Below, piece after piece: positions 56 to 8,856 of a DNA stretch of 64,000 nt. Both the position numbers and the translations under genes were made by a program. Numbering within the stretch: the first letter of the stretch is position 1; each line of letters starts with the position of its first letter. This DNA comes from Deltaproteobacteria bacterium (GTDB taxonomy: Bacteria; Myxococcota_A; Polyangia; Haliangiales; SHYZ01), in assembly GCA_016210055.1 (NCBI GenBank), contig JACQUZ010000155.1, positions 5,633-69,632 of the forward strand, read 5' to 3'. The notes under the pieces are model-generated. The model saw only the letters and a list, made by a program, of their open reading frames with translations, did not search any database and was not told the origin of the DNA.

Positions 56-1075
56 ATGACGCGAATCGAGACCCCGCTCACGCGCCACGTGGGAACCGAG
101 GTTCCCATCATTTGCGGCGCCATGTACCCCTGCTCCAATCCCGAGCTCATCGCCGCTGTTTCCAAGGCTGGCGCGGTGGGCATTATCCAGCCCATCTCGA
201 TGAGCTTTGTCCACGGCGTGGACCTCCGCGCCGGGATCAGGCGGATCCGGGCCATCACCGACAAGCCCATCGGCTTCAACGCCATCGTCGAAAAGACCTC
301 GAAGATCTACGAGGAACGGATGCGCGCCTGGGTCGATATCGCGCTCGAAGAAGGGGTGCGCTTCTTCGTCACTGCCCTCGGCAAGCCACGGTGGGTGGTG
401 GAGAAAGTCCACGCCGCGGGGGGGATCGTTTACCACGACGTAACCGAACGCAGGTGGGCCGAGAGAGCCCTCGAAGAAGGCGTTGATGGGCTCATTTGCG
501 TCAACGACCGCGCCGGTGGGCATGCGGGCCGCCTCACGCCCCGCGCGCTCTACGAAAGCATGGCCGACCTCAAGGTGCCCCTCGTTTGCGCCGGAGGAAT
601 CGGCGACGAGCGCGCGTTCATCGAAGCCCTCTCCATGGGCTATGCGGGGGTCCAAATGGGGACGCGCTTCATTGCCACGACGGAGTGCAACGCGCATGAG
701 GACTACAAGCGCGCCATTGTCCAGGCACGCGCCGAGGACATTGTCCTCACCGAGAAGCTCTCCGGCGTCCCGGCGGCGGTGATCAAGACGAGGCACGTGG
801 AGCGGATGGGGACCAAGGCAGGCTTTGTTGCCAAGCGCCTGCTTCGCCACCCCAGGGCGAAGCACTGGATGCGCACGTACTACGCTGTCAAGTCGATTTG
901 GCAGCTAAAGCGGGCGTCAATCAAGGGCACGGCCTATAAGGATTACTTCCAGGCCGGCAAGAGCGTGGCAGGGATTCATGGGGTGGAGCCCGTGGGGGAG
1001 ATCATTCGCCGGTTCGCGAATGCCGCAAGTCAGGACAGGGCGCCCTGCGCAGAGAGGATTGGAGCAAGTCACTAG
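56..1075 (+). CDS. Nitronate monooxygenase / 2-nitropropane dioxygenase family (FabK-like) FMN oxidoreductase
   Basis: 339-aa ORF. NMO-family segments are present in the translation: PIICGAMYPCSNPELIAAVSKAGAVG near the N-terminus and CAGGIGDERAFIEALSMGYAGVQMGTRFIAT (FMN-binding region). The antisense ORF 26..865 is treated as a GC shadow. Confidence 0.85.
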   Translation: MTRIETPLTRHVGTEVPIICGAMYPCSNPELIAAVSKAGAVGIIQPISMSFVHGVDLRAGIRRIRAITDKPIGFNAIVEKTSKIYEERMRAWVDIALEEGVRFFVTALGKPRWVVEKVHAAGGIVYHDVTERRWAERALEEGVDGLICVNDRAGGHAGRLTPRALYESMADLKVPLVCAGGIGDERAFIEALSMGYAGVQMGTRFIATTECNAHEDYKRAIVQARAEDIVLTEKLSGVPAAVIKTRHVERMGTKAGFVAKRLLRHPRAKHWMRTYYAVKSIWQLKRASIKGTAYKDYFQAGKSVAGIHGVEPVGEIIRRFANAASQDRAPCAERIGASH

Positions 1076-1081
1076 CGCCGG

Positions 1082-1738
1082 TTAGTTGATCGCGTTGCCA
1101 ATGGCAGCGCCCACGCAGGCTCCGCAAACCACGGCTCCGGCAAAACTAGGGAACGTGGCGCAGGCACCAAGCGTCACCCACCAGGGGCAGTTCGGGATTT
1201 TCGAGGCAAATGACGAGCAGATCTGACCATCCTCGGTCGCTGTGCACATGTTCGTACCTAGATCGGCCAGGTTGCTGCCCAGGACCGGGTCGTTCAGGAC
1301 CGCCTGCAGGACCTCCATCTCGCGCGTGAGCTCGCGGGGGAACTCGCCGCTTAGCACCTCGACGCCAGCCTCGCTGAACCTGACCCGGACCTTCTCGACG
1401 GTCCCGACGATAACCGCCAGCTCTTGTCCTTCACGCCGCACCACGAGGGGTGCGTCCGAGCTATCGAGCTGGATAGAGGACTCCTGGGTCCCGGCCGACT
1501 CCACACCACGCACGGTCCCGATCTCGACGCCCGAGAAATCGCGCAAGTGGATAAACGTCTCGGCTCCCGCGTAGATTTCATAGCTCCCAATCCCCAGGGC
1601 CCTCGGCTTCTCACCAGAAGCCACGATGACCGACTGCTCTGTGGACGCGCCTTCCGTGGAAGGGGCCTGGTCGGAGGCACATCCCCCGAATGCGAACGCA
1701 GCGACCAACATCGAAGAGAGCGAGAGTAGCTTTTTCAT
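1082..1738 (-). CDS. Hypothetical lipoprotein with a Cys-rich, Gly/Ala-rich hydrophobic C-terminal tail
   Basis: The start is moved to the internal ATG (1738), giving MKKLLSLSSMLVAAFAFGGCASDQ, a signal peptide with a lipobox-like FGGC. The C-terminus is CTATEDGQICSSFASKIPNCPWWVTLGACATFPSFAGAVVCGACVGAAIGNAIN. I recognise no family. Confidence 0.6.
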   Translation of the reverse strand: MKKLLSLSSMLVAAFAFGGCASDQAPSTEGASTEQSVIVASGEKPRALGIGSYEIYAGAETFIHLRDFSGVEIGTVRGVESAGTQESSIQLDSSDAPLVVRREGQELAVIVGTVEKVRVRFSEAGVEVLSGEFPRELTREMEVLQAVLNDPVLGSNLADLGTNMCTATEDGQICSSFASKIPNCPWWVTLGACATFPSFAGAVVCGACVGAAIGNAIN

Positions 1739-1795
1739 GGCGGTCCTTTTCTTTTTTCTAATGAGTTGTCCCAATTGTCCGTGATTAGCCTAAAG

Positions 1796-2002
1796 CTAGA
1801 AATAAACACCGCAGCAGCGCCGAATGCCCTGGGTCACGCTGACGCAGTCGCCGCACGCATAGCCGCCGCACTTGGTATAGCCTTCGCTTGGCCCCTTGGG
1901 CCAGGCGATGGCGCCCCCATTCAAGTCGGCGAGCTGCGCGTCCGAGAGATACTTGATGGTTTCCTTGTTCAGGCTCAGCTTCTTGGTGGTCTTGTTCGAC
2001 AT
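1796..2002 (-). CDS. Double-glycine (GG) leader peptide with Cys-rich core; putative bacteriocin/RiPP precursor
   Basis: 68 aa: MSNKTTKKLSLNKETIKYLSDAQLADLNGG | AIAWPKGPSEGYTKCGGYACGDCVSVTQGIRRCCGVYF. The leader matches the bacteriocin-type double-glycine pattern (LS-x2-EL/QL-x2-(I/L)-x-GG). The 38-aa core has 5 Cys. A strong SD lies upstream on the minus strand (ccaatAGGAGAaacgtcATG). Confidence 0.6.
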   Translation of the reverse strand: MSNKTTKKLSLNKETIKYLSDAQLADLNGGAIAWPKGPSEGYTKCGGYACGDCVSVTQGIRRCCGVYF

Positions 2003-2189
2003 GACGTTTCTCCTATTGGGGCGCTCAGTTTCGCCCGCGTTGGCCGGGGCGTATTGCAGCGGGCGTGCCTATCCCGAGCGCCTTGCAAGGTTCCGAAACT
2101 GCGATAAAACGCCGCGTGACGCTGACCGGGGACTGACACGGTGCCACTGTGTTGACCGCAGGGAATGAGTCAGAGGAGAGACGTAGTTT

Positions 2190-3290
2190 TCAAATCCACC
2201 GCAGGTCCAGGTAAGGCCGCGCGGTGGCGGCGGCTCCAAGCGGTGGGGCTTCCGCCCACTCGAGGAGATCCACGTCGGAGACGAACGACTGGAAGGGAAT
2301 CCCTTTCATCGCCGGGCGCAATGGGTCATCCCCGGCAAAGCCCACGTGGATCATGTGGACCCCGGTCCCGAGGAGGTCGTCGTGGAGGACGGCCAGGAGG
2401 TCCCGCAGGATTGCTGGATCCCCGCTCGGTACAGCCACGCGCGTCGTGGTCACTGTGCGGAAGGATTCGCCAGGCCGTGGAAGGGGAGCCGAGCGCCGCA
2501 GCCAAAGGCGGGCTGCGCGGTGGGCCAAGCGAATCGCGTGTCCCCTGGGGGAGAAGCCGAGGACGGTGGTTCGGCGCACGGCGCCCGCGTCCCAGGCCCC
2601 CATGACCCCGACGAGCTCCGAACCCACGTGAGCGAGATAGAAATCCCCAACCGAGAACCCTGGAAGACGCCGGACGTCGTCCGAGAGATCCTCGTCGGTG
2701 CAAGCGGGCGCGAAGAGCCGCCCCTCGTAGGCACGGGCCATTAGCTTGGCCATGGCGGGGAGATCCTCCACTTGGGCACGCCGCACCTTGCAGCGCCTCG
2801 GCTCTCCCAGAGGGCGGAGCACGAGGACGTTCGCTGCTTCGAAGGCACACAACCTGCGGACTCGGATGCTCGGAATGGCCAACCGATCCATCACTTGCCT
2901 GGCCGACGTGTTCCCCCTCTTCACCAGGCAGAAGCCGAGGGCAAGCGACCGCGGATCCACGGCGATGGCATGGGCGGCAGCGCGTTCTGTGAACCTGTGC
3001 CCGCGCTCGCTAGGAAGTACCCGCGCGTCCCCGCCGTAATAGAACGCACCCCACCCGGCGCCTGTATAGCCTCGTGCCCACCCGAAAAGAAAATAGGCGC
3101 AAAGCTCATCGTCGCGAAATCCGCCGAGGTACAGGTGCCGATCAAACACGGCGTCGGGCCAGCCAAAGAAGCATGGGGCCCGATCGAAGAAGAAAGTGAA
3201 GTCCGCTCGGATCGGGCACGCGCGGTTGATCTCGCGCATTCTGCCCTCGAGGCTCCTATCAAGCAGCCTGATTGCGAGCGCATCCCTCAT
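2190..3290 (-). CDS. Putative GNAT-fold acyltransferase (two-lobed), function unknown
   Basis: 366-aa ORF whose ATG overlaps the stop of the upstream DUF3419 gene (3287..3290). It carries weak GNAT-like segments (FYLAHVGSELVGVMGAWD; PSERGHRFTERAAAHAI). The family assignment is tentative. Confidence 0.55.
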   Translation of the reverse strand: MRDALAIRLLDRSLEGRMREINRACPIRADFTFFFDRAPCFFGWPDAVFDRHLYLGGFRDDELCAYFLFGWARGYTGAGWGAFYYGGDARVLPSERGHRFTERAAAHAIAVDPRSLALGFCLVKRGNTSARQVMDRLAIPSIRVRRLCAFEAANVLVLRPLGEPRRCKVRRAQVEDLPAMAKLMARAYEGRLFAPACTDEDLSDDVRRLPGFSVGDFYLAHVGSELVGVMGAWDAGAVRRTTVLGFSPRGHAIRLAHRAARLWLRRSAPLPRPGESFRTVTTTRVAVPSGDPAILRDLLAVLHDDLLGTGVHMIHVGFAGDDPLRPAMKGIPFQSFVSDVDLLEWAEAPPLGAAATARPYLDLRWI

Positions 3291-4384
3291 GGGATACGAC
3301 GCCGCGCCACGCTGGCGGGCACCACCTGGTAAAAGGGGAAGCGGTCTCTTTGGGTCAGCTCACGACCAAGGGCATCATCCACGCACACCGTCTCGCGGAG
3401 GCGCTCGGGTAAAGGACGGTTCACGTGGATGTAACGCCACGCGACCCGCCCCCCGTCGGGCATGCGGGTGGCCACGGCGTCCAAGAGGTCACCCCACTGC
3501 TCCTGAGAAAGCCAGTCGGGAAGATTCGAAAGCTGGACCTTTTGGAATGTCCCGACGGGCTCGCGCTTGAGGCACTGGCCGATATCCTCGTGCCTGAGGT
3601 CCAAGCAACCAGGCCGCGCGCGGAGGGTCTCGACCCCCGCACGAGAAAGATAGAATGGGCACGCGTCGGCGCTCGTCAGGCGACCGAGGAGGGACAGCGC
3701 CAAGAGTGGGTTGTCGGAAGCCAAGTGCCCCGTGCACAGCTTGCGAAACTGCTCGAAGAACTGATCGCCGAGTGGGACCTGCGAGTCGCGGTACTTAAGC
3801 GACCTCGGGTCCATCCCACGCTTGCGAAACAGGCGAGGATGGAACACCAGGCGGAAGACGCGCCGCAAGGATGGACGGGCAATCTCGCGGTCGAAGTGAG
3901 CGCACTGCTCCTCGAGGGTGGAGGCACGAAAAAGGCCCTCGAGCCTGCGCGACCCCACGAGCGGGCCAAAAGCCCTTCGCACGAGGCCCATGTAGCGCTC
4001 GTACCGGCCCGCCCAAATGACCCCTTTCTTGACAGCACTCTCGTGGCGCGTCCAGAACGCGCGTGCATCGTCGGACACGAGCGGCAGGACCTGGCGAAGC
4101 TGCTTCTTCCTCGCGGCGCCGCTGCATGGCACGTATCCGAGAAACCGCAGGGCATCCTCACGCAAGAGCGCCCGCACCGCCGCGAGCTTGAGCTCGACGA
4201 GAAAGAGCTGGGGCTTGCTCGTGTCCACGGCGACCACCCGGCTCGCCCCGAGCGCGAGGAGCGAAAGGGGCATCTCCCCGGCGCTGGCCACGCACAGGAT
4301 GTGGTCGCGGTCGCACAGCTTGAGCGCCCGTGCCTCGGTGCGCTCGTCCTCCTGGGACAGTCCAAAGTTGTAAAGGGCGCTCAC
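3287..4384 (-). CDS. DUF3419 / BtaA-like protein (family of S-adenosylmethionine:diacylglycerol 3-amino-3-carboxypropyl transferase)
   Basis: 365 aa. The N-terminal block LYNFGLSQEDERTEARALKL...ILCVASAGEMPLSLLALGASRVVAVDTSKPQLFLVELKLAAVRAL matches the conserved DUF3419/BtaA N-terminus (a SAM-binding Rossmann-like motif followed by the LELKLAA helix). There are 4-nt overlaps with both neighbouring genes. Confidence 0.8.
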   Translation of the reverse strand: MSALYNFGLSQEDERTEARALKLCDRDHILCVASAGEMPLSLLALGASRVVAVDTSKPQLFLVELKLAAVRALLREDALRFLGYVPCSGAARKKQLRQVLPLVSDDARAFWTRHESAVKKGVIWAGRYERYMGLVRRAFGPLVGSRRLEGLFRASTLEEQCAHFDREIARPSLRRVFRLVFHPRLFRKRGMDPRSLKYRDSQVPLGDQFFEQFRKLCTGHLASDNPLLALSLLGRLTSADACPFYLSRAGVETLRARPGCLDLRHEDIGQCLKREPVGTFQKVQLSNLPDWLSQEQWGDLLDAVATRMPDGGRVAWRYIHVNRPLPERLRETVCVDDALGRELTQRDRFPFYQVVPASVARRRIP

Positions 4385-7300
4385 TCCTCCTTGGATACCA
4401 TGGAAGCCGCGGAGGCCCTAAACCCGCCCCCGCCCAGCGCGGCGTAGAACCCAAGCCGCTCCCCGAGCGCATCGAGGGCTGCCACGCTTTGCGGATCGAT
4501 GTCGCCGACGAGCCTCAGGTCACGCGTCTCCTCGGGCGCGAGGCCGAGCAGCATGACCTCGGCGGCGCAGCAGAACGTGCTCCCCTCTGGAGTGTGAGAG
4601 CTCACGACGAAATCCGGCGCAGAAGGAACCGCGACGGTGCCAGCAAAAGGAACTACCCGCACGTTCGGCATGCCTTGTACCAGCGGCGACACGGCGCTCG
4701 GGACCGAGACGTCGGCAATAAGGACCGGGTGCCCTGTGGCCAGGTGGTGTGGAAACACCAGGGGCTCATTGGTGCTCGTGGCCACGGTCACCACGTGGCA
4801 GGCGCGAAGCAGGTGCAAGTCCGTGCCCACCTGGACGTCAATGGCGCCGCCTGCCCCTCTGCCCACCTCGGAGAGCACCTGGTCTCTCAAGGCCGCGAGC
4901 CGCCGCTGGTCGCGGCCGAGGAGCACCACGCGGCCAGGCCGCGGCAAGCCCGTGACGAGCTTGTGCACGAGCGCAGACCCGATGTTCCCCGTGGCACCGA
5001 CGACGCCCAGCACCGCGTCGCCCACGGCCACGCCCATGCCCGCGCATGCGCCTTGCAGGCGACGGGCCGCTACCGCGACGGTGAAGCTGTTCCCCGACGT
5101 AATTCGCACCCCATCTGGTGGAAGCAACGCCAACCCATCGCGCGCGAGGATGCTCGTGTACCCGCCCAGCGCCACGTGACCGCAGCCGAGAGACGCAGCC
5201 AGGTTGACCGCGTCCTGGAGCCGCTCGGTCTCTAGGTAGCGGTAGTTGCGGCGGAGCCTTTCCTCCAAGAACGCAGCGTCGGCTGGAATAACGATGGATA
5301 CAAACCAGAGTCGCCCGCCGAACAGGTTTCGCGAGAAACCCAGGATGGGCTTGAGCTCGAGGAACGTGGTGAGCCTTTGGAATAGCGCCCGCAAGGCGCC
5401 CCGCCCCAGGGCGGCGAGGGACGGCTCGGCCATGGCGATTTCCCGCTCCGGCAGGGCGAAGTGCGAAATGAAGGCCACTCGCGCGGCGCCCTCGGCAGGT
5501 CGCTCCACCCGCCCCGAGAACCTTGGAAGCGCCTGCGCTGGGAAACGATCTTGCTCGGCGAGATCCTCGCGCGGAAGAATGCCGCGGAGCAAGACGCCCA
5601 GGTCACGGCGAACGAGCACATCGCAAAGTCCCCGGAGTGCGTTCACAAGCTGATCCTGCCCATGGCTATCGAGGAATGCGCTCGGTTGAATTCGAAGGGT
5701 GCTCGGCGCCGACAAGGTCGGCAGGATACGGACGTGATGCTCGTGAAGGAGGAACGCGGAAGCCACGGCCCCCAGGAGGTCATGCGTCTCGAGGGCCCGA
5801 AGAACCAGCGAGTCCTCGGTAGCCTTCGGTGCAAGCTTGATCCCGAGAAGAAGCCCCCGACCCGAGACCCGCTCGATCACGTCAGGGTATTCGTGCGCCA
5901 GGCCGACGAGCGCAGCCTTTAGCGCCTCGCCACGTTCCCTCGCCCTCCTGGGAATGTCCTCCCTTTCGATGACATCTAGCACCCGGCGCGCCACGCGGCA
6001 GGAAAACGGGTCGCCCCCAAAGGTCGACGAGTAGTGCTCGTCAAAGCGATCCAAGTAGCGGCTCCGCTCCACGAGCAGCGCCGAGATCTTGGCCGCACCT
6101 CCCCCGAGCGCCTTGCCAAAAAGATAGTAATGCCCACGCACCCCCTCGGAGGCGAGGAAGGTCCCCACCCGGCCGAGGCCGCTCTGGATCTCATCCAAAA
6201 TGAGCGGGAACTCGTACCCGCCGAGCCTTGCGAGCAGGCGAGGATCGATCTCGGTCACCCCGCCCTCCCCCTGGATGGGTTCGGCGATCGCCGCCACGAC
6301 ATTCACGAAGGAGAGCGTTCCCAAGGCCGCGCCATGACCACGTGGAACGAGGATGGGCACGCAGGCCGTGTACTCGCAAACAAGGGCGTCGAGGTCAATC
6401 TCCCCGCTCCTCGGCACGAACCGGGTCTCGATCCCCATGAGGCTCTCGTAGGGCGCCCGCTTGCGCGCATTTCCCAAGACGGCCCTTGCTCCCAAGGAAT
6501 GGCCATGAAACGCCCCTTCCAAGGCAATGAGCGCCAGCCTCGACGCCCCCAGGATCCGCTCGGCCTCCGCCAGGCAGTGCGAGACGAGCTCGGGCTGGGC
6601 GCCCCCAAAACGCCGCTTCTGGTCTCGGGCGATCCTCCGCCAGCGCTCGTTTCGCTCGAGCGCCGCGTGGGAGATGGCCATCTCCACCGCCTCCGACCCG
6701 GTTGAACCGAAACGCACGACGTAGGCTTGTCCGGTGGTCTCCGCGACCTTCAGGGCGAGCTTCCTGGCCAGCTCGCCCTGCTCGGGACGCGCAGCCCCTT
6801 GGTCCCAGAAAAGAACCGAGTCGTCTTCCAGGGCCGCGGATGCCGCTTCTCGCACGGCCTCATGCGAATGGCCGAGCAAGTTGCCACCGAAGCCACCGAC
6901 GGCGTCGAGGACCTCGATCGGACGACTACCGTCGAGAAAAACGAGGCGATCCCCCTTTCCCGACACGTAGTGCTTGTCCATGCGCGTCGAGCGAAGAAGC
7001 GCCCCACGGCGTGGGCTCGCGAGCCGCACGTGGGTGGGCTGGAAGAAATGCTCTTCAGGCAAGAGCACGATGCCTGCACGCTTGGAGTAGGGCCCGCACA
7101 GGTTCGCGAGCAATGGGCCATAACGCCTATCAATCTCACTTCGGACGACCGACCCTTTTCGCGTGCGGGGAACCTGGTCGCGAACGCAGGCGAACCGCTT
7201 GATCGTGAGGTGGCGAAACTCGAATTCCTCGAGGGAATCCAGGAAATGCTCGTGCCTGGCCTCGAGCTGGCCTTGCACTGATGAAAGGATCGCCCGGGCG

Positions 7301-8856
7301 GTCACGAGGCATCCCGCCTCGGGCGCATGCTCGCCCAAGAGAAACACCAGGGCCGCAAGCCCTGGCTCCTCGCGCAGCGGGAAGCACTCCACATGAGCGA
7401 CGGGCGGCATGAGCCCCCCGTACAGCTCCTCCAAGCGGCCTCGCGATACCTTGACGCCAAAGCTGTCCTTGACGAAGTCCCCCTTCGCCCGGGCAAAGTA
7501 CTTGAGCCCCGCCTTCGACTTCACGACGAGATCGCCCGTATCCATGAATCCACCGGGGCCCGGGAAGTTCCCGCCCTGAGCGGCGCTATCTTCGTGGGCA
7601 AGATAGCCGAGCGAGGCGAATGGAGATCGGGCCCACAAGCGAAACACGCCCTCACCTTGGGAGGGTTCTGGCGCGAGTCCCAGCTCCACCCCGGGAAGCG
7701 GCGACCCGAGACTCCCAGGCTCGTGGGGACCTCCGACAAGCGTGCAGGCGATCATCTGAGTCTCGGTAGTGCCAAGCGCGTTTTCCAAGGGGAGGCCGAG
7801 GGCGACGTGGAGCCGCTTGGCCAAGCTTCCGTCGTAGGGCGCACCATTCGAGACAAGGCACTTGAGATCCTGGAAGCAGGTCTCCTTGAGCTGGGGGAAG
7901 ACCCGCGCGAGCTCGAGGAGCGCGCGATACGTGGCAGGACCAGCGAGCACGTGCTCTGGCCGCATCTCGAGAAGCAGGTCACGCACCCGACCAGGATGCT
8001 CGATCACTCTCTCGGGAGTCAGGAGGCACAAGGGCTTGCGCGTCCACAGCGCATTCCAGAGCGCGCGCACGCCCATGGAATGACCGAGGAGGAGGCTCAG
8101 ACCACGGTTTCCGAGTCGATCTTCACCGAGAAGCCCGGCCGCCTCCCAGCTCGCCGCGCTGCGAAGAAACGCCCCTTGTGCATAGCGAACGAGCCTCGCG
8201 CGGCCGGACGTCCCCGAGGTCGTCAGGAGCAATGCCTCCGTCTCGGCCGAAGTCGCTCCCATGAGGGTGGCAATGAGCGGATCGCTCGCGGGCGGGCTCT
8301 CCTCGTGCGTCTCGACAGCCCGTGCTCCCAGGTTCAAGTCCCCCTGCAAGCAAAGGGCAGGGATGCCGAGCGTGCGAGCCATGGCACGCAGGCGCCCAAG
8401 AAGCGCAAGATCTGCCTCGTGCTTCACGAGGTCTTCCACCTCGTGAGCATTCCAAAGAAGGAGCTTGCTTCCCGACGCCTTGAGCCAGGCTTCGAGGCGG
8501 TCGCACTCGATGTACATGGGAAGGAATACCCGCACCCCCCACGCAGAGAGCGCCACGAGCGACAAGGCGACGAGCGTTTCACTCGTGCGTGGCAGCCTGA
8601 GGACGCACACCGTGTCTCCCGGCTTCACTCCGCGGCGCGAAAGATCGGCAATGAGGCCAAGCGTCGCGTGCCGAAGTGCACGCAGGGATACACGCACGCC
8701 CCCCTCGTCAATGGTGCCCATGATGACGGGCTCAGCATCTGACCCGCCATCCGCGCGACCGAACAAAAGGTCGGCGAAATTCTGGAACCTGAGCAAGCAA
8801 GGCGCCGCGCCACCGGGCGACCGGATCACTTCGAACACCTCTAGAGAACGCGGCAT
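4381..8856 (-). CDS. Three-domain fusion enzyme: AMP-dependent acyl ligase + class-III (PLP) aminotransferase + acyl-ACP-reductase (AAR)-like NAD(P) domain
   Basis: 1491 aa. N-terminal third: AMP-binding core motif LLLTTSGTSGRARLV and a later GDLV...KG adenylation-type segment. Middle: class-III aminotransferase motifs (GSTGSEAVEMAI, LILDEIQSGLGRVG, FGKALGGGAAKIS with the PLP Lys). C-terminal about 340 aa align by eye with cyanobacterial acyl-ACP reductase: VAFISHF vs FGLIGHL, ALGGYTSIL vs ALGGFTSII, ITSGNSFTVAV vs FTTGNTHTAYV, VVGATGNIGSALV vs VVGATGDIGSAV, FCCAAEVMLL vs FACFAEAMLL (catalytic Cys). No phosphopantetheine carrier motif was noticed. Confidence 0.85.
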   Translation of the reverse strand: MPRSLEVFEVIRSPGGAAPCLLRFQNFADLLFGRADGGSDAEPVIMGTIDEGGVRVSLRALRHATLGLIADLSRRGVKPGDTVCVLRLPRTSETLVALSLVALSAWGVRVFLPMYIECDRLEAWLKASGSKLLLWNAHEVEDLVKHEADLALLGRLRAMARTLGIPALCLQGDLNLGARAVETHEESPPASDPLIATLMGATSAETEALLLTTSGTSGRARLVRYAQGAFLRSAASWEAAGLLGEDRLGNRGLSLLLGHSMGVRALWNALWTRKPLCLLTPERVIEHPGRVRDLLLEMRPEHVLAGPATYRALLELARVFPQLKETCFQDLKCLVSNGAPYDGSLAKRLHVALGLPLENALGTTETQMIACTLVGGPHEPGSLGSPLPGVELGLAPEPSQGEGVFRLWARSPFASLGYLAHEDSAAQGGNFPGPGGFMDTGDLVVKSKAGLKYFARAKGDFVKDSFGVKVSRGRLEELYGGLMPPVAHVECFPLREEPGLAALVFLLGEHAPEAGCLVTARAILSSVQGQLEARHEHFLDSLEEFEFRHLTIKRFACVRDQVPRTRKGSVVRSEIDRRYGPLLANLCGPYSKRAGIVLLPEEHFFQPTHVRLASPRRGALLRSTRMDKHYVSGKGDRLVFLDGSRPIEVLDAVGGFGGNLLGHSHEAVREAASAALEDDSVLFWDQGAARPEQGELARKLALKVAETTGQAYVVRFGSTGSEAVEMAISHAALERNERWRRIARDQKRRFGGAQPELVSHCLAEAERILGASRLALIALEGAFHGHSLGARAVLGNARKRAPYESLMGIETRFVPRSGEIDLDALVCEYTACVPILVPRGHGAALGTLSFVNVVAAIAEPIQGEGGVTEIDPRLLARLGGYEFPLILDEIQSGLGRVGTFLASEGVRGHYYLFGKALGGGAAKISALLVERSRYLDRFDEHYSSTFGGDPFSCRVARRVLDVIEREDIPRRARERGEALKAALVGLAHEYPDVIERVSGRGLLLGIKLAPKATEDSLVLRALETHDLLGAVASAFLLHEHHVRILPTLSAPSTLRIQPSAFLDSHGQDQLVNALRGLCDVLVRRDLGVLLRGILPREDLAEQDRFPAQALPRFSGRVERPAEGAARVAFISHFALPEREIAMAEPSLAALGRGALRALFQRLTTFLELKPILGFSRNLFGGRLWFVSIVIPADAAFLEERLRRNYRYLETERLQDAVNLAASLGCGHVALGGYTSILARDGLALLPPDGVRITSGNSFTVAVAARRLQGACAGMGVAVGDAVLGVVGATGNIGSALVHKLVTGLPRPGRVVLLGRDQRRLAALRDQVLSEVGRGAGGAIDVQVGTDLHLLRACHVVTVATSTNEPLVFPHHLATGHPVLIADVSVPSAVSPLVQGMPNVRVVPFAGTVAVPSAPDFVVSSHTPEGSTFCCAAEVMLLGLAPEETRDLRLVGDIDPQSVAALDALGERLGFYAALGGGGFRASAASMVSKEE

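Follow-up and report, generated by a model that had tools for sequence, protein, structure and literature searches.

The question raised by this locus is how a peptide that carries a double-glycine leader could leave the cell when no C39-peptidase ABC exporter (PCAT) is encoded near it, and what kind of peptide it would be once outside. The window, meaning the whole stretch of 64,000 nucleotides that was analysed, corresponds to C136:5633-69632, where C136 is a 72.6-kb contig of a 5.4-Mb assembly in 180 contigs with a GC content of 64%. The host is a metagenome-assembled genome (MAG), 98% complete, whose Rho is at most 79% identical to that of any species representative, the nearest being a Myxococcales MAG, and it represents an uncultured, deep-branching member of the Myxococcota. 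A sequence-only reading of the window had singled out the missing exporter as an anomaly and had offered a disulfide-rich bacteriocin, a signalling peptide and a RiPP substrate as possible products.

The 68-codon open reading frame at 1796..2002 on the minus strand is a genuine gene, as seen from its leader-model scores, its GC3 and the ratio of dN to dS in its leader. Its codon GC content (GC3 0.84, against 0.46 for GC1 and 0.49 for GC2) follows the coding pattern of a 64% GC genome, and a Shine-Dalgarno sequence, AGGAGA, is located at 2009..2014 (minus strand), 6 nt 5' of the ATG. The leader takes up residues 1-30 (nt 2002-1913) and ends in Gly-Gly, while the core takes up residues 31-68 (nt 1912-1799), a stretch of 38 amino acids with four Ser/Thr and five Cys in the scaffold C-x4-C-x2-C-x9-CC; the 68-aa translation, the 38-aa core with five Cys and the Shine-Dalgarno site read earlier were all reproduced from this frame. 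PF28317 is the precomputed annotation attached to the peptide, and a Pfam scan of the whole peptide and of the core alone gave no significant match. A PDB sequence search with the core detected no similarity, and among 5.8 billion proteins a word-indexed search with the peptide returned only the paralogues from the same genome. Conservation of the ORF in relatives, whose absence had been named at the outset as a refutation, is lacking for the core, which has no counterpart in the 40 relatives examined, and three diverged paralogues under selection serve as a substitute.

These paralogues are the product of a 1.2-kb unit triplicated in tandem, of which the third copy spans 933..2172 on the minus strand, with 78-80% identity between copies by self-BLAST. 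The copies occupy C136:3057-4264, 4351-5550 and 6565-7804 (the last being the one in the window), with copies 1 and 2 to the left of the window start and their peptide genes 0.1-1.7 kb beyond its edge. Every unit contains the peptide gene with some 170 nt upstream of it, the gene of a lipoprotein and a 3' fragment of the nitronate monooxygenase (NMO) gene. The intact monooxygenase gene lies at window 56-1075, and its 3' end is found at C136:2978-3163, at about C136:4295-4400 and at window 933-1075; because every copy carries such a fragment, the triplication came about by segmental duplication, with the adjoining gene clipped in the process. All six ORFs, three for peptides and three for lipoproteins, are intact despite a DNA divergence of around 20%, and the Shine-Dalgarno site of the peptide gene is kept in 3/3 copies. 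Between paralogues, the leader shows a dN of 0-0.04 against a dS of 0.11-0.41 and is under strong purifying selection, the lipoprotein has a dN/dS of 0.31-0.40, and the core, with a dN/dS of about 0.6-1.2, retains its five Cys, its four Ser/Thr and the block SEGYTxCGGYACGDCVSV. The genes of the cassette are real and under selection, and a conserved leader joined to a variable core is a pattern typical of RiPP and bacteriocin precursors.

The rule for double-glycine leaders asks for GG (or GA/GS) at positions -2/-1, hydrophobic residues at -4, -7 and -12, and a helical leader (PMC6363468), the latter three residues having been placed by Bobeica et al. in a hydrophobic groove of the C39 domain (PMC6363468). 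The leader of this peptide follows the rule, with Gly-Gly at -2/-1, Leu at -4, -7 and -12, and Ile at -15, and in paralogue 2 the cleavage site is G-A instead of Gly-Gly. The peptide is a genuine double-glycine precursor and, as first proposed, would need a PCAT from outside the window. Its leader had been called a textbook bacteriocin-type one; the double-glycine part of that description holds, and the type turned out to be more specific, the LxLxKx5L...GG kind known from class I lanthipeptides of the Bacteroidetes type, with LSLNKETIKYL as the motif. The leader scored 35.7 bits against NF038153 (class I lanthipeptide leader, lant_leader_L1a), for which the curated cut-off is 22, a value reached in 0/14 control genomes, and on this score it is assigned to the LxLxKx5L...Gly-Gly family. 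It also scored 27 bits against TIGR04149, a model of radical-SAM targets with a curated cut-off of 25. Leaders with LxLxKx5L...GG are found on many class I LanAs of the Bacteroidetes, whose clusters often include a C39 protease (Walker et al. 2020, PMC7268733).

Paralogous double-glycine peptides, one of the suggested checks, are present in the genome. A six-frame scan with the leader model gave about 12 ORFs in total, of which seven exceed the cut-off; two of the ORFs are on C136, to the left of the window. Eight more small ORFs with this leader are scattered over other contigs (C65:20881, C55:17925, C115:36865, C48:16893, C154:11188, C76:10279, C111:24581 and C106:67911); their cores are unrelated and mostly Cys-rich, and the lists of neighbouring ORFs held no obvious maturase or exporter. 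The one on C154 adjoins a 1017-aa kinase/WD40-like protein. Within the order, the leader occurs in 7/41 genomes. At four loci in three relatives (L112, L113, L114 and L118, in G003, G015 and G023), an ORF of some 910-950 aa ends about 100-160 nt before a match to the leader model; a motif scan at these sites recovered a peptide ORF in L112 only, and at L118 a LanC-like gene is found close downstream of the match.

That the window has no C39-peptidase ABC exporter was confirmed: the 5.4-Mb assembly gave a single Peptidase_C39 match, and this falls on contig C125. It belongs to an intact PCAT at C125:4895-7186, so the genome as a whole is not without one. The protein, 763 aa in length, consists of Peptidase_C39 (103 bits), ABC_membrane and ABC_tran domains, and its protease should be active because the catalytic Cys/His motifs are present, as QMTATDCGAAC (QxxxxDCG..C), NHFVVF (HFVV) and IIDP (DP). 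Two different HlyD-family adaptor genes are found directly upstream. Ahead of these, in the stretch C125:4895-9701, is a response regulator whose C-terminal part is an XRE-like helix-turn-helix. A regex search found no leader-bearing ORF beside the PCAT. C39 domains as such are widespread, being present in 40/41 genomes of the order.

The enzymes of lanthipeptide formation are dispersed in the same way. A full-length LanB, with Lant_dehydr_N and Lant_dehydr_C, stands alone on C180, and its Lant_dehydr_N score is 120 bits as against 460-570 bits in relatives. In C180:32072-37074, this divergent LanB is followed by a 644-aa Ser/Thr-kinase-like protein. A 416-aa LanC with the WCYG and CHG zinc motifs is encoded on C47, and further LanC-like or LanM-like genes are present on C52, C90 and C161 (LanC-like on C90, LanM-like on C161). 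At C47:19244-20721, the LanC directly follows another precursor with the same type of leader, MQKKSLSKMTVTKETLRNL...QGG, and since this pair sits on a contig other than that of LanB, action in trans is already required in this genome. The 72.6 kb of C136 hold no LanB, LanC or LanM, so the precursor is not clustered with its enzymes, clustering being a usual feature of such systems and not an obligatory one. A double-glycine peptide without an exporter is explained by a genome in which precursors, LanB, LanC and PCAT are all unlinked, and the lack of a nearby exporter is no longer an anomaly.

The tie between leader and enzymes was seen in two independent ways. Among the 41 genomes of the order, LanB is present in 6/7 that have the leader and in 8/34 that do not (Fisher p = 0.004), with the reservation that three of the six genomes with both are congeneric and hence not fully independent. 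In metagenomes, the LSLNKETI...GG leader is common: a scan seeded with the peptide alignment yielded 24 loci, mostly of low GC, in which near-identical LSLNKETI leaders are joined to unrelated cores rich in Cys, Ser and Thr; where at least 3.5 kb of flank was available (n = 13), a homologue of the C47 LanC was found in nine, LanB in three and PCAT in three. Because the leader is tied to LanB in genomes and to LanC at metagenome loci, a lanthipeptide ranks above an unmodified bacteriocin as the reading of this peptide. The earlier range of a bacteriocin or a RiPP substrate was correct.

The partner gene in the cassette encodes a lipoprotein of 218 aa (1082..1738, minus strand), starts 57 nt past the stop codon of the peptide gene and has its own Shine-Dalgarno site, AAAGGA, at 1744-1749 (minus strand); its length across the cassette copies is 218-230 aa. 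By a PROSITE-type rule, which 6/7 members of the lipoprotein family follow, there is a lipobox with AFGG before Cys20, and six further Cys are present. The tail is hydrophobic and Cys-rich, with the pattern CPWWVxLGxC...CxxC (here CPWWVTLGAC...VCGAC) and a KD19 of 1.85 at residue 199. In an AlphaFold (AF2) model built from seven sequences (pLDDT 68, pTM 0.63), an antiparallel beta domain spanning about residues 34-165 is predicted with confidence and the tail with low confidence, while a model built from only three sequences (pLDDT 40) was unusable. Pfam and NCBIfam scans of the lipoprotein and its tail assigned no family, and a PDB profile search gave nothing below E = 0.1; across the Pfam scans of peptide, core, lipoprotein and tail, glycine-zipper (E = 0.06) and TmoB (E = 0.17) were the sole traces. 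The best Foldseek match of the model (pLDDT 68) in the PDB had E = 0.07 and a TM of about 0.2, with NisI and SpaI not among the 50 best matches listed.

No copy of the lipoprotein was found in the 40 relatives or in a collection of genome contigs, and the word-indexed search of 5.8 billion proteins returned the genome's own paralogues only. When the lipoprotein profile was run in full with HMMER against 1.8 billion representatives, it added only four remote relatives (E = 1e-9 to 3e-5), which have G-x-x-x-Y, CPW(W/Y) and C...CxxC in common. These adjoin trypsin-like proteases and other Cys-tail lipoproteins, and there was no double-glycine peptide on their contigs. Examples from metagenomes are L023:140-2737 and L024:1-1542, where relatives of the lipoprotein are found beside trypsin-like proteases and beside further lipoproteins or proteins whose C-terminal tails are rich in Cys and aromatic residues, such as ...SCTWLGGWWHYCYRDGHYHCCLF...; the arrangement may be an uncharacterised envelope protein module. 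On the evidence of these searches, the lipoprotein stands for a small, undescribed family whose pairing with a double-glycine peptide is confined to this lineage. Adjacency, co-duplication and envelope location make the lipoprotein a candidate immunity or partner protein, adjacency being the criterion used for validated microcin immunity genes, where the neighbour is small and membrane-associated (PMC12219008).

The best explanation, given about an even chance of being right, is that the ORF encodes the orphan precursor of a secreted peptide of the class I lanthipeptide type, which would be matured and exported in trans and have a lipoprotein at its side as candidate immunity or partner protein. 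In a wider form of this reading, the peptide is either of that type or bonded by disulfides in another way. The precursor would be translated with a 30-residue helical leader and served by the unlinked PCAT and, probably, by the unlinked LanB and LanC as well. The leader would first dock the peptide to LanB (C180) and to a LanC such as that of C47. By these enzymes, a number of the four Ser/Thr would be dehydrated and linked to a number of the five Cys, the candidate ring residues kept in the three paralogues, and the Cys of the core left over would form disulfides. The same leader would then place L-4, L-7 and L-12 in the C39 groove of the sole PCAT (C125), which would cleave on the C-terminal side of Gly-Gly and, together with its pair of HlyD-type adaptors, expel a cationic core of about 4 kDa. 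The lipoprotein, presumably co-transcribed and thrice co-duplicated, would most likely provide self-protection to the producer or act as a partner at the envelope. Trans action, thioether formation, antibacterial activity and an immunity role are thus all predicted parts of this scheme, and the odd number of conserved Cys would fit a mixture of thioethers and disulfides better than disulfides alone. Several points speak against it. Neither a modifying enzyme nor an exporter is encoded on C136 (72.6 kb), the leader is not exclusive to LanB/LanC, since it passes TIGR04149 as well, Cys (five) outnumber Ser/Thr (four) in the core, and the LanB of this genome is divergent. Neither the core nor the lipoprotein occurs in the 40 relatives; the lipoprotein, for its part, shows no resemblance in fold or sequence to LanI or to any other solved protein, and its remote relatives are found beside trypsin-like proteases, not double-glycine peptides.

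Some of the same points would suit an unmodified, disulfide-bonded toxin like a class II bacteriocin or microcin, in which the leader would serve only for recognition by the PCAT, the core would be folded through disulfide bonds, either periplasmic or extracellular, and the lipoprotein would be the cognate immunity protein, with triplication and core divergence the marks of a toxin-immunity arms race. Such a toxin would account for a contig without a maturase and for a leader that also matches TIGR04149, a family outside the lanthipeptides. Its core of 38 aa with five Cys and a pI of 8.4 would resemble the bacteroidetocins (42 aa, four Cys, GG leader; PMC6671954), the adjacent gene for a small, membrane-associated protein would match validated microcin immunity genes (PMC12219008), and PCAT plus MFP is the architecture of a type I microcin exporter. 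However, the leader family is strongly tied to LanC and LanB in metagenome loci and in relatives, an odd number of conserved Cys would leave one thiol unpaired, four Ser/Thr are kept in a core that otherwise evolves fast, and no thiol oxidoreductase is linked as in bacteroidetocin loci. An unmodified toxin is considered unlikely, if well short of far-fetched.

A secreted signal, such as a pheromone of the ComC/BlpC type, or the substrate of another maturase (a radical SAM enzyme or a LanM) is improbable. The double-glycine leader and the remote PCAT would be in keeping with either, TIGR04149 is passed, LanM-like genes exist on C161, and a possible sigma-54/enhancer architecture would suggest regulated expression. 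The possible -24/-12 element, GGCACGcccgcTGCAAT, is located at 2053..2069 (minus strand), about 50 nt 5' of the ATG, and does not differ between the three copies; the genome has rpoN. The evidence for a sigma-54-type promoter is weak, because the core motif, with 20 occurrences genome-wide for about 21 predicted from composition, is no commoner than chance, and because identity is about 80% throughout the repeat anyway. An imperfect palindrome, ACACaGTGGCACCGTGT, at 2136..2152 is kept upstream of all three peptide genes and could be the site of a putative regulator. Against a signal, none of the three cassettes has a linked histidine kinase or response regulator, which leaves the signalling role first suggested for the peptide without support. 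ComC/BlpC-type pheromones are usually linear and Cys-free, and three diverged copies per genome are a misfit with a single pair of signal and receptor.

Very unlikely, too, is that the copies are silent or decaying and have no current function. The cassette is known from one genome only, and the NMO fragments at its flanks are signs of recent rearrangement, but decay is hard to reconcile with six intact ORFs at 20% DNA divergence, a leader dN of about 0 against a dS of 0.1-0.4, a lipoprotein dN/dS of 0.3-0.4 and Shine-Dalgarno sites that have been kept.

Upstream of the cassette and co-oriented with the peptide gene (minus strand), an operon at 2190-8856 encodes a GNAT-like protein, a DUF3419 protein and a 1491-aa ligase (acyl-activating)/aminotransferase/reductase. 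The peptide gene was considered as part of this operon and rejected, given that the repeat stops at 2172, short of the GNAT-like gene by 18 nt, that it includes its own upstream region and that the two sister cassettes occur without the operon. On the metagenome contigs L106, L108 and L109, an unrelated convergent gene follows the three-gene operon at 27-118 nt, too close for a peptide gene to fit in between, and the operon is a unit separate from the cassette. That the peptide is a lipidated RiPP made by this operon, as the shared strand and a distance of only 187 nt from the GNAT-like gene might suggest, is scarcely credible in view of the repeat boundary, the upstream region, the sister cassettes and the operon's other occurrences.

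Modestly new are an orphan core scaffold from the little-explored, uncultured Myxococcota, the threefold tandem peptide-lipoprotein cassette and the family of lipoproteins with a CPWW tail. Mining tools that look for clusters would miss such peptides because precursors and machinery are unlinked. If the peptide is active, the three natural variants of the peptide-lipoprotein pair would form a specificity series already at hand; if not, it is a further addition to a very large family of precursors that is already catalogued.

Known systems offer several comparisons. The immunity lipoproteins of the LanI type, NisI and SpaI, are encoded beside the precursor of a class I lanthipeptide. The lipoprotein described here is likewise found beside a class I lanthipeptide-type precursor, hence self-protection is plausible, but no similarity to NisI or SpaI in sequence or fold was detected, the envelope is Gram-negative and the CPWW...CxxC tail is distinct. 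Judged from the predicted structure, it is not a member of LanI by fold.

The bacteroidetocins and class II microcins (PMC6671954, PMC12219008) are, like this peptide, Gram-negative Cys peptides of about 40 aa with a GG leader and PCAT export (with MFP and TolC in the microcins), and an adjacent gene for a membrane-associated immunity protein is seen in microcins as it is here, where it is a candidate. In contrast, their leaders are 15-16 aa long and lack LxLxKx5L, and their PCAT is linked, as is a thiol oxidoreductase in the bacteroidetocins, whereas the leader here has 30 aa and the PCAT is unlinked. The core has no sequence similarity to either group, and membership was rejected on the basis of the 30-aa leader, the unlinked PCAT and a core without Pfam or PDB similarity.

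Closer are the Bacteroidetes-type class I LanAs (NF038153, PMC7268733), which are related to the pinensins. Leader motif, length and GG site match, the cores in both are hypervariable and rich in Cys, Ser and Thr, and the relatives are tied to LanC, LanB and C39 exporters. The differences are the host, an uncultured member of the Myxococcota with 64% GC, the unlinked enzymes, the excess of Cys over Ser/Thr and the co-duplicated lipoprotein partner, which was not seen in other loci.

In organization, the resemblance is to the prochlorosins of Prochlorococcus MIT9313 (ProcA, ProcM and PCAT, discussed in PMC6363468), where many scattered precursors with one conserved leader and diverse cores are served by a single enzyme set acting in trans and by a GG protease/exporter. 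The prochlorosins are of class II (LanM), with Nif11-type leaders, around 30 precursors and no partner lipoprotein, whereas the enzymes here are of the class I type and the leader-bearing ORFs number about 12. A bolder version of the preferred explanation, and a rather doubtful one at present, is that this genome holds a class I (LanB/LanC) counterpart of the prochlorosins, in which about a dozen scattered precursors would depend on a single dispersed set of enzymes and on one PCAT with its two adaptors. The cassette would then pair each diversifying lanthipeptide toxin with its own co-evolving CPWW-tail lipoprotein, a new type of immunity or partner protein for lanthipeptides of Gram-negative bacteria.
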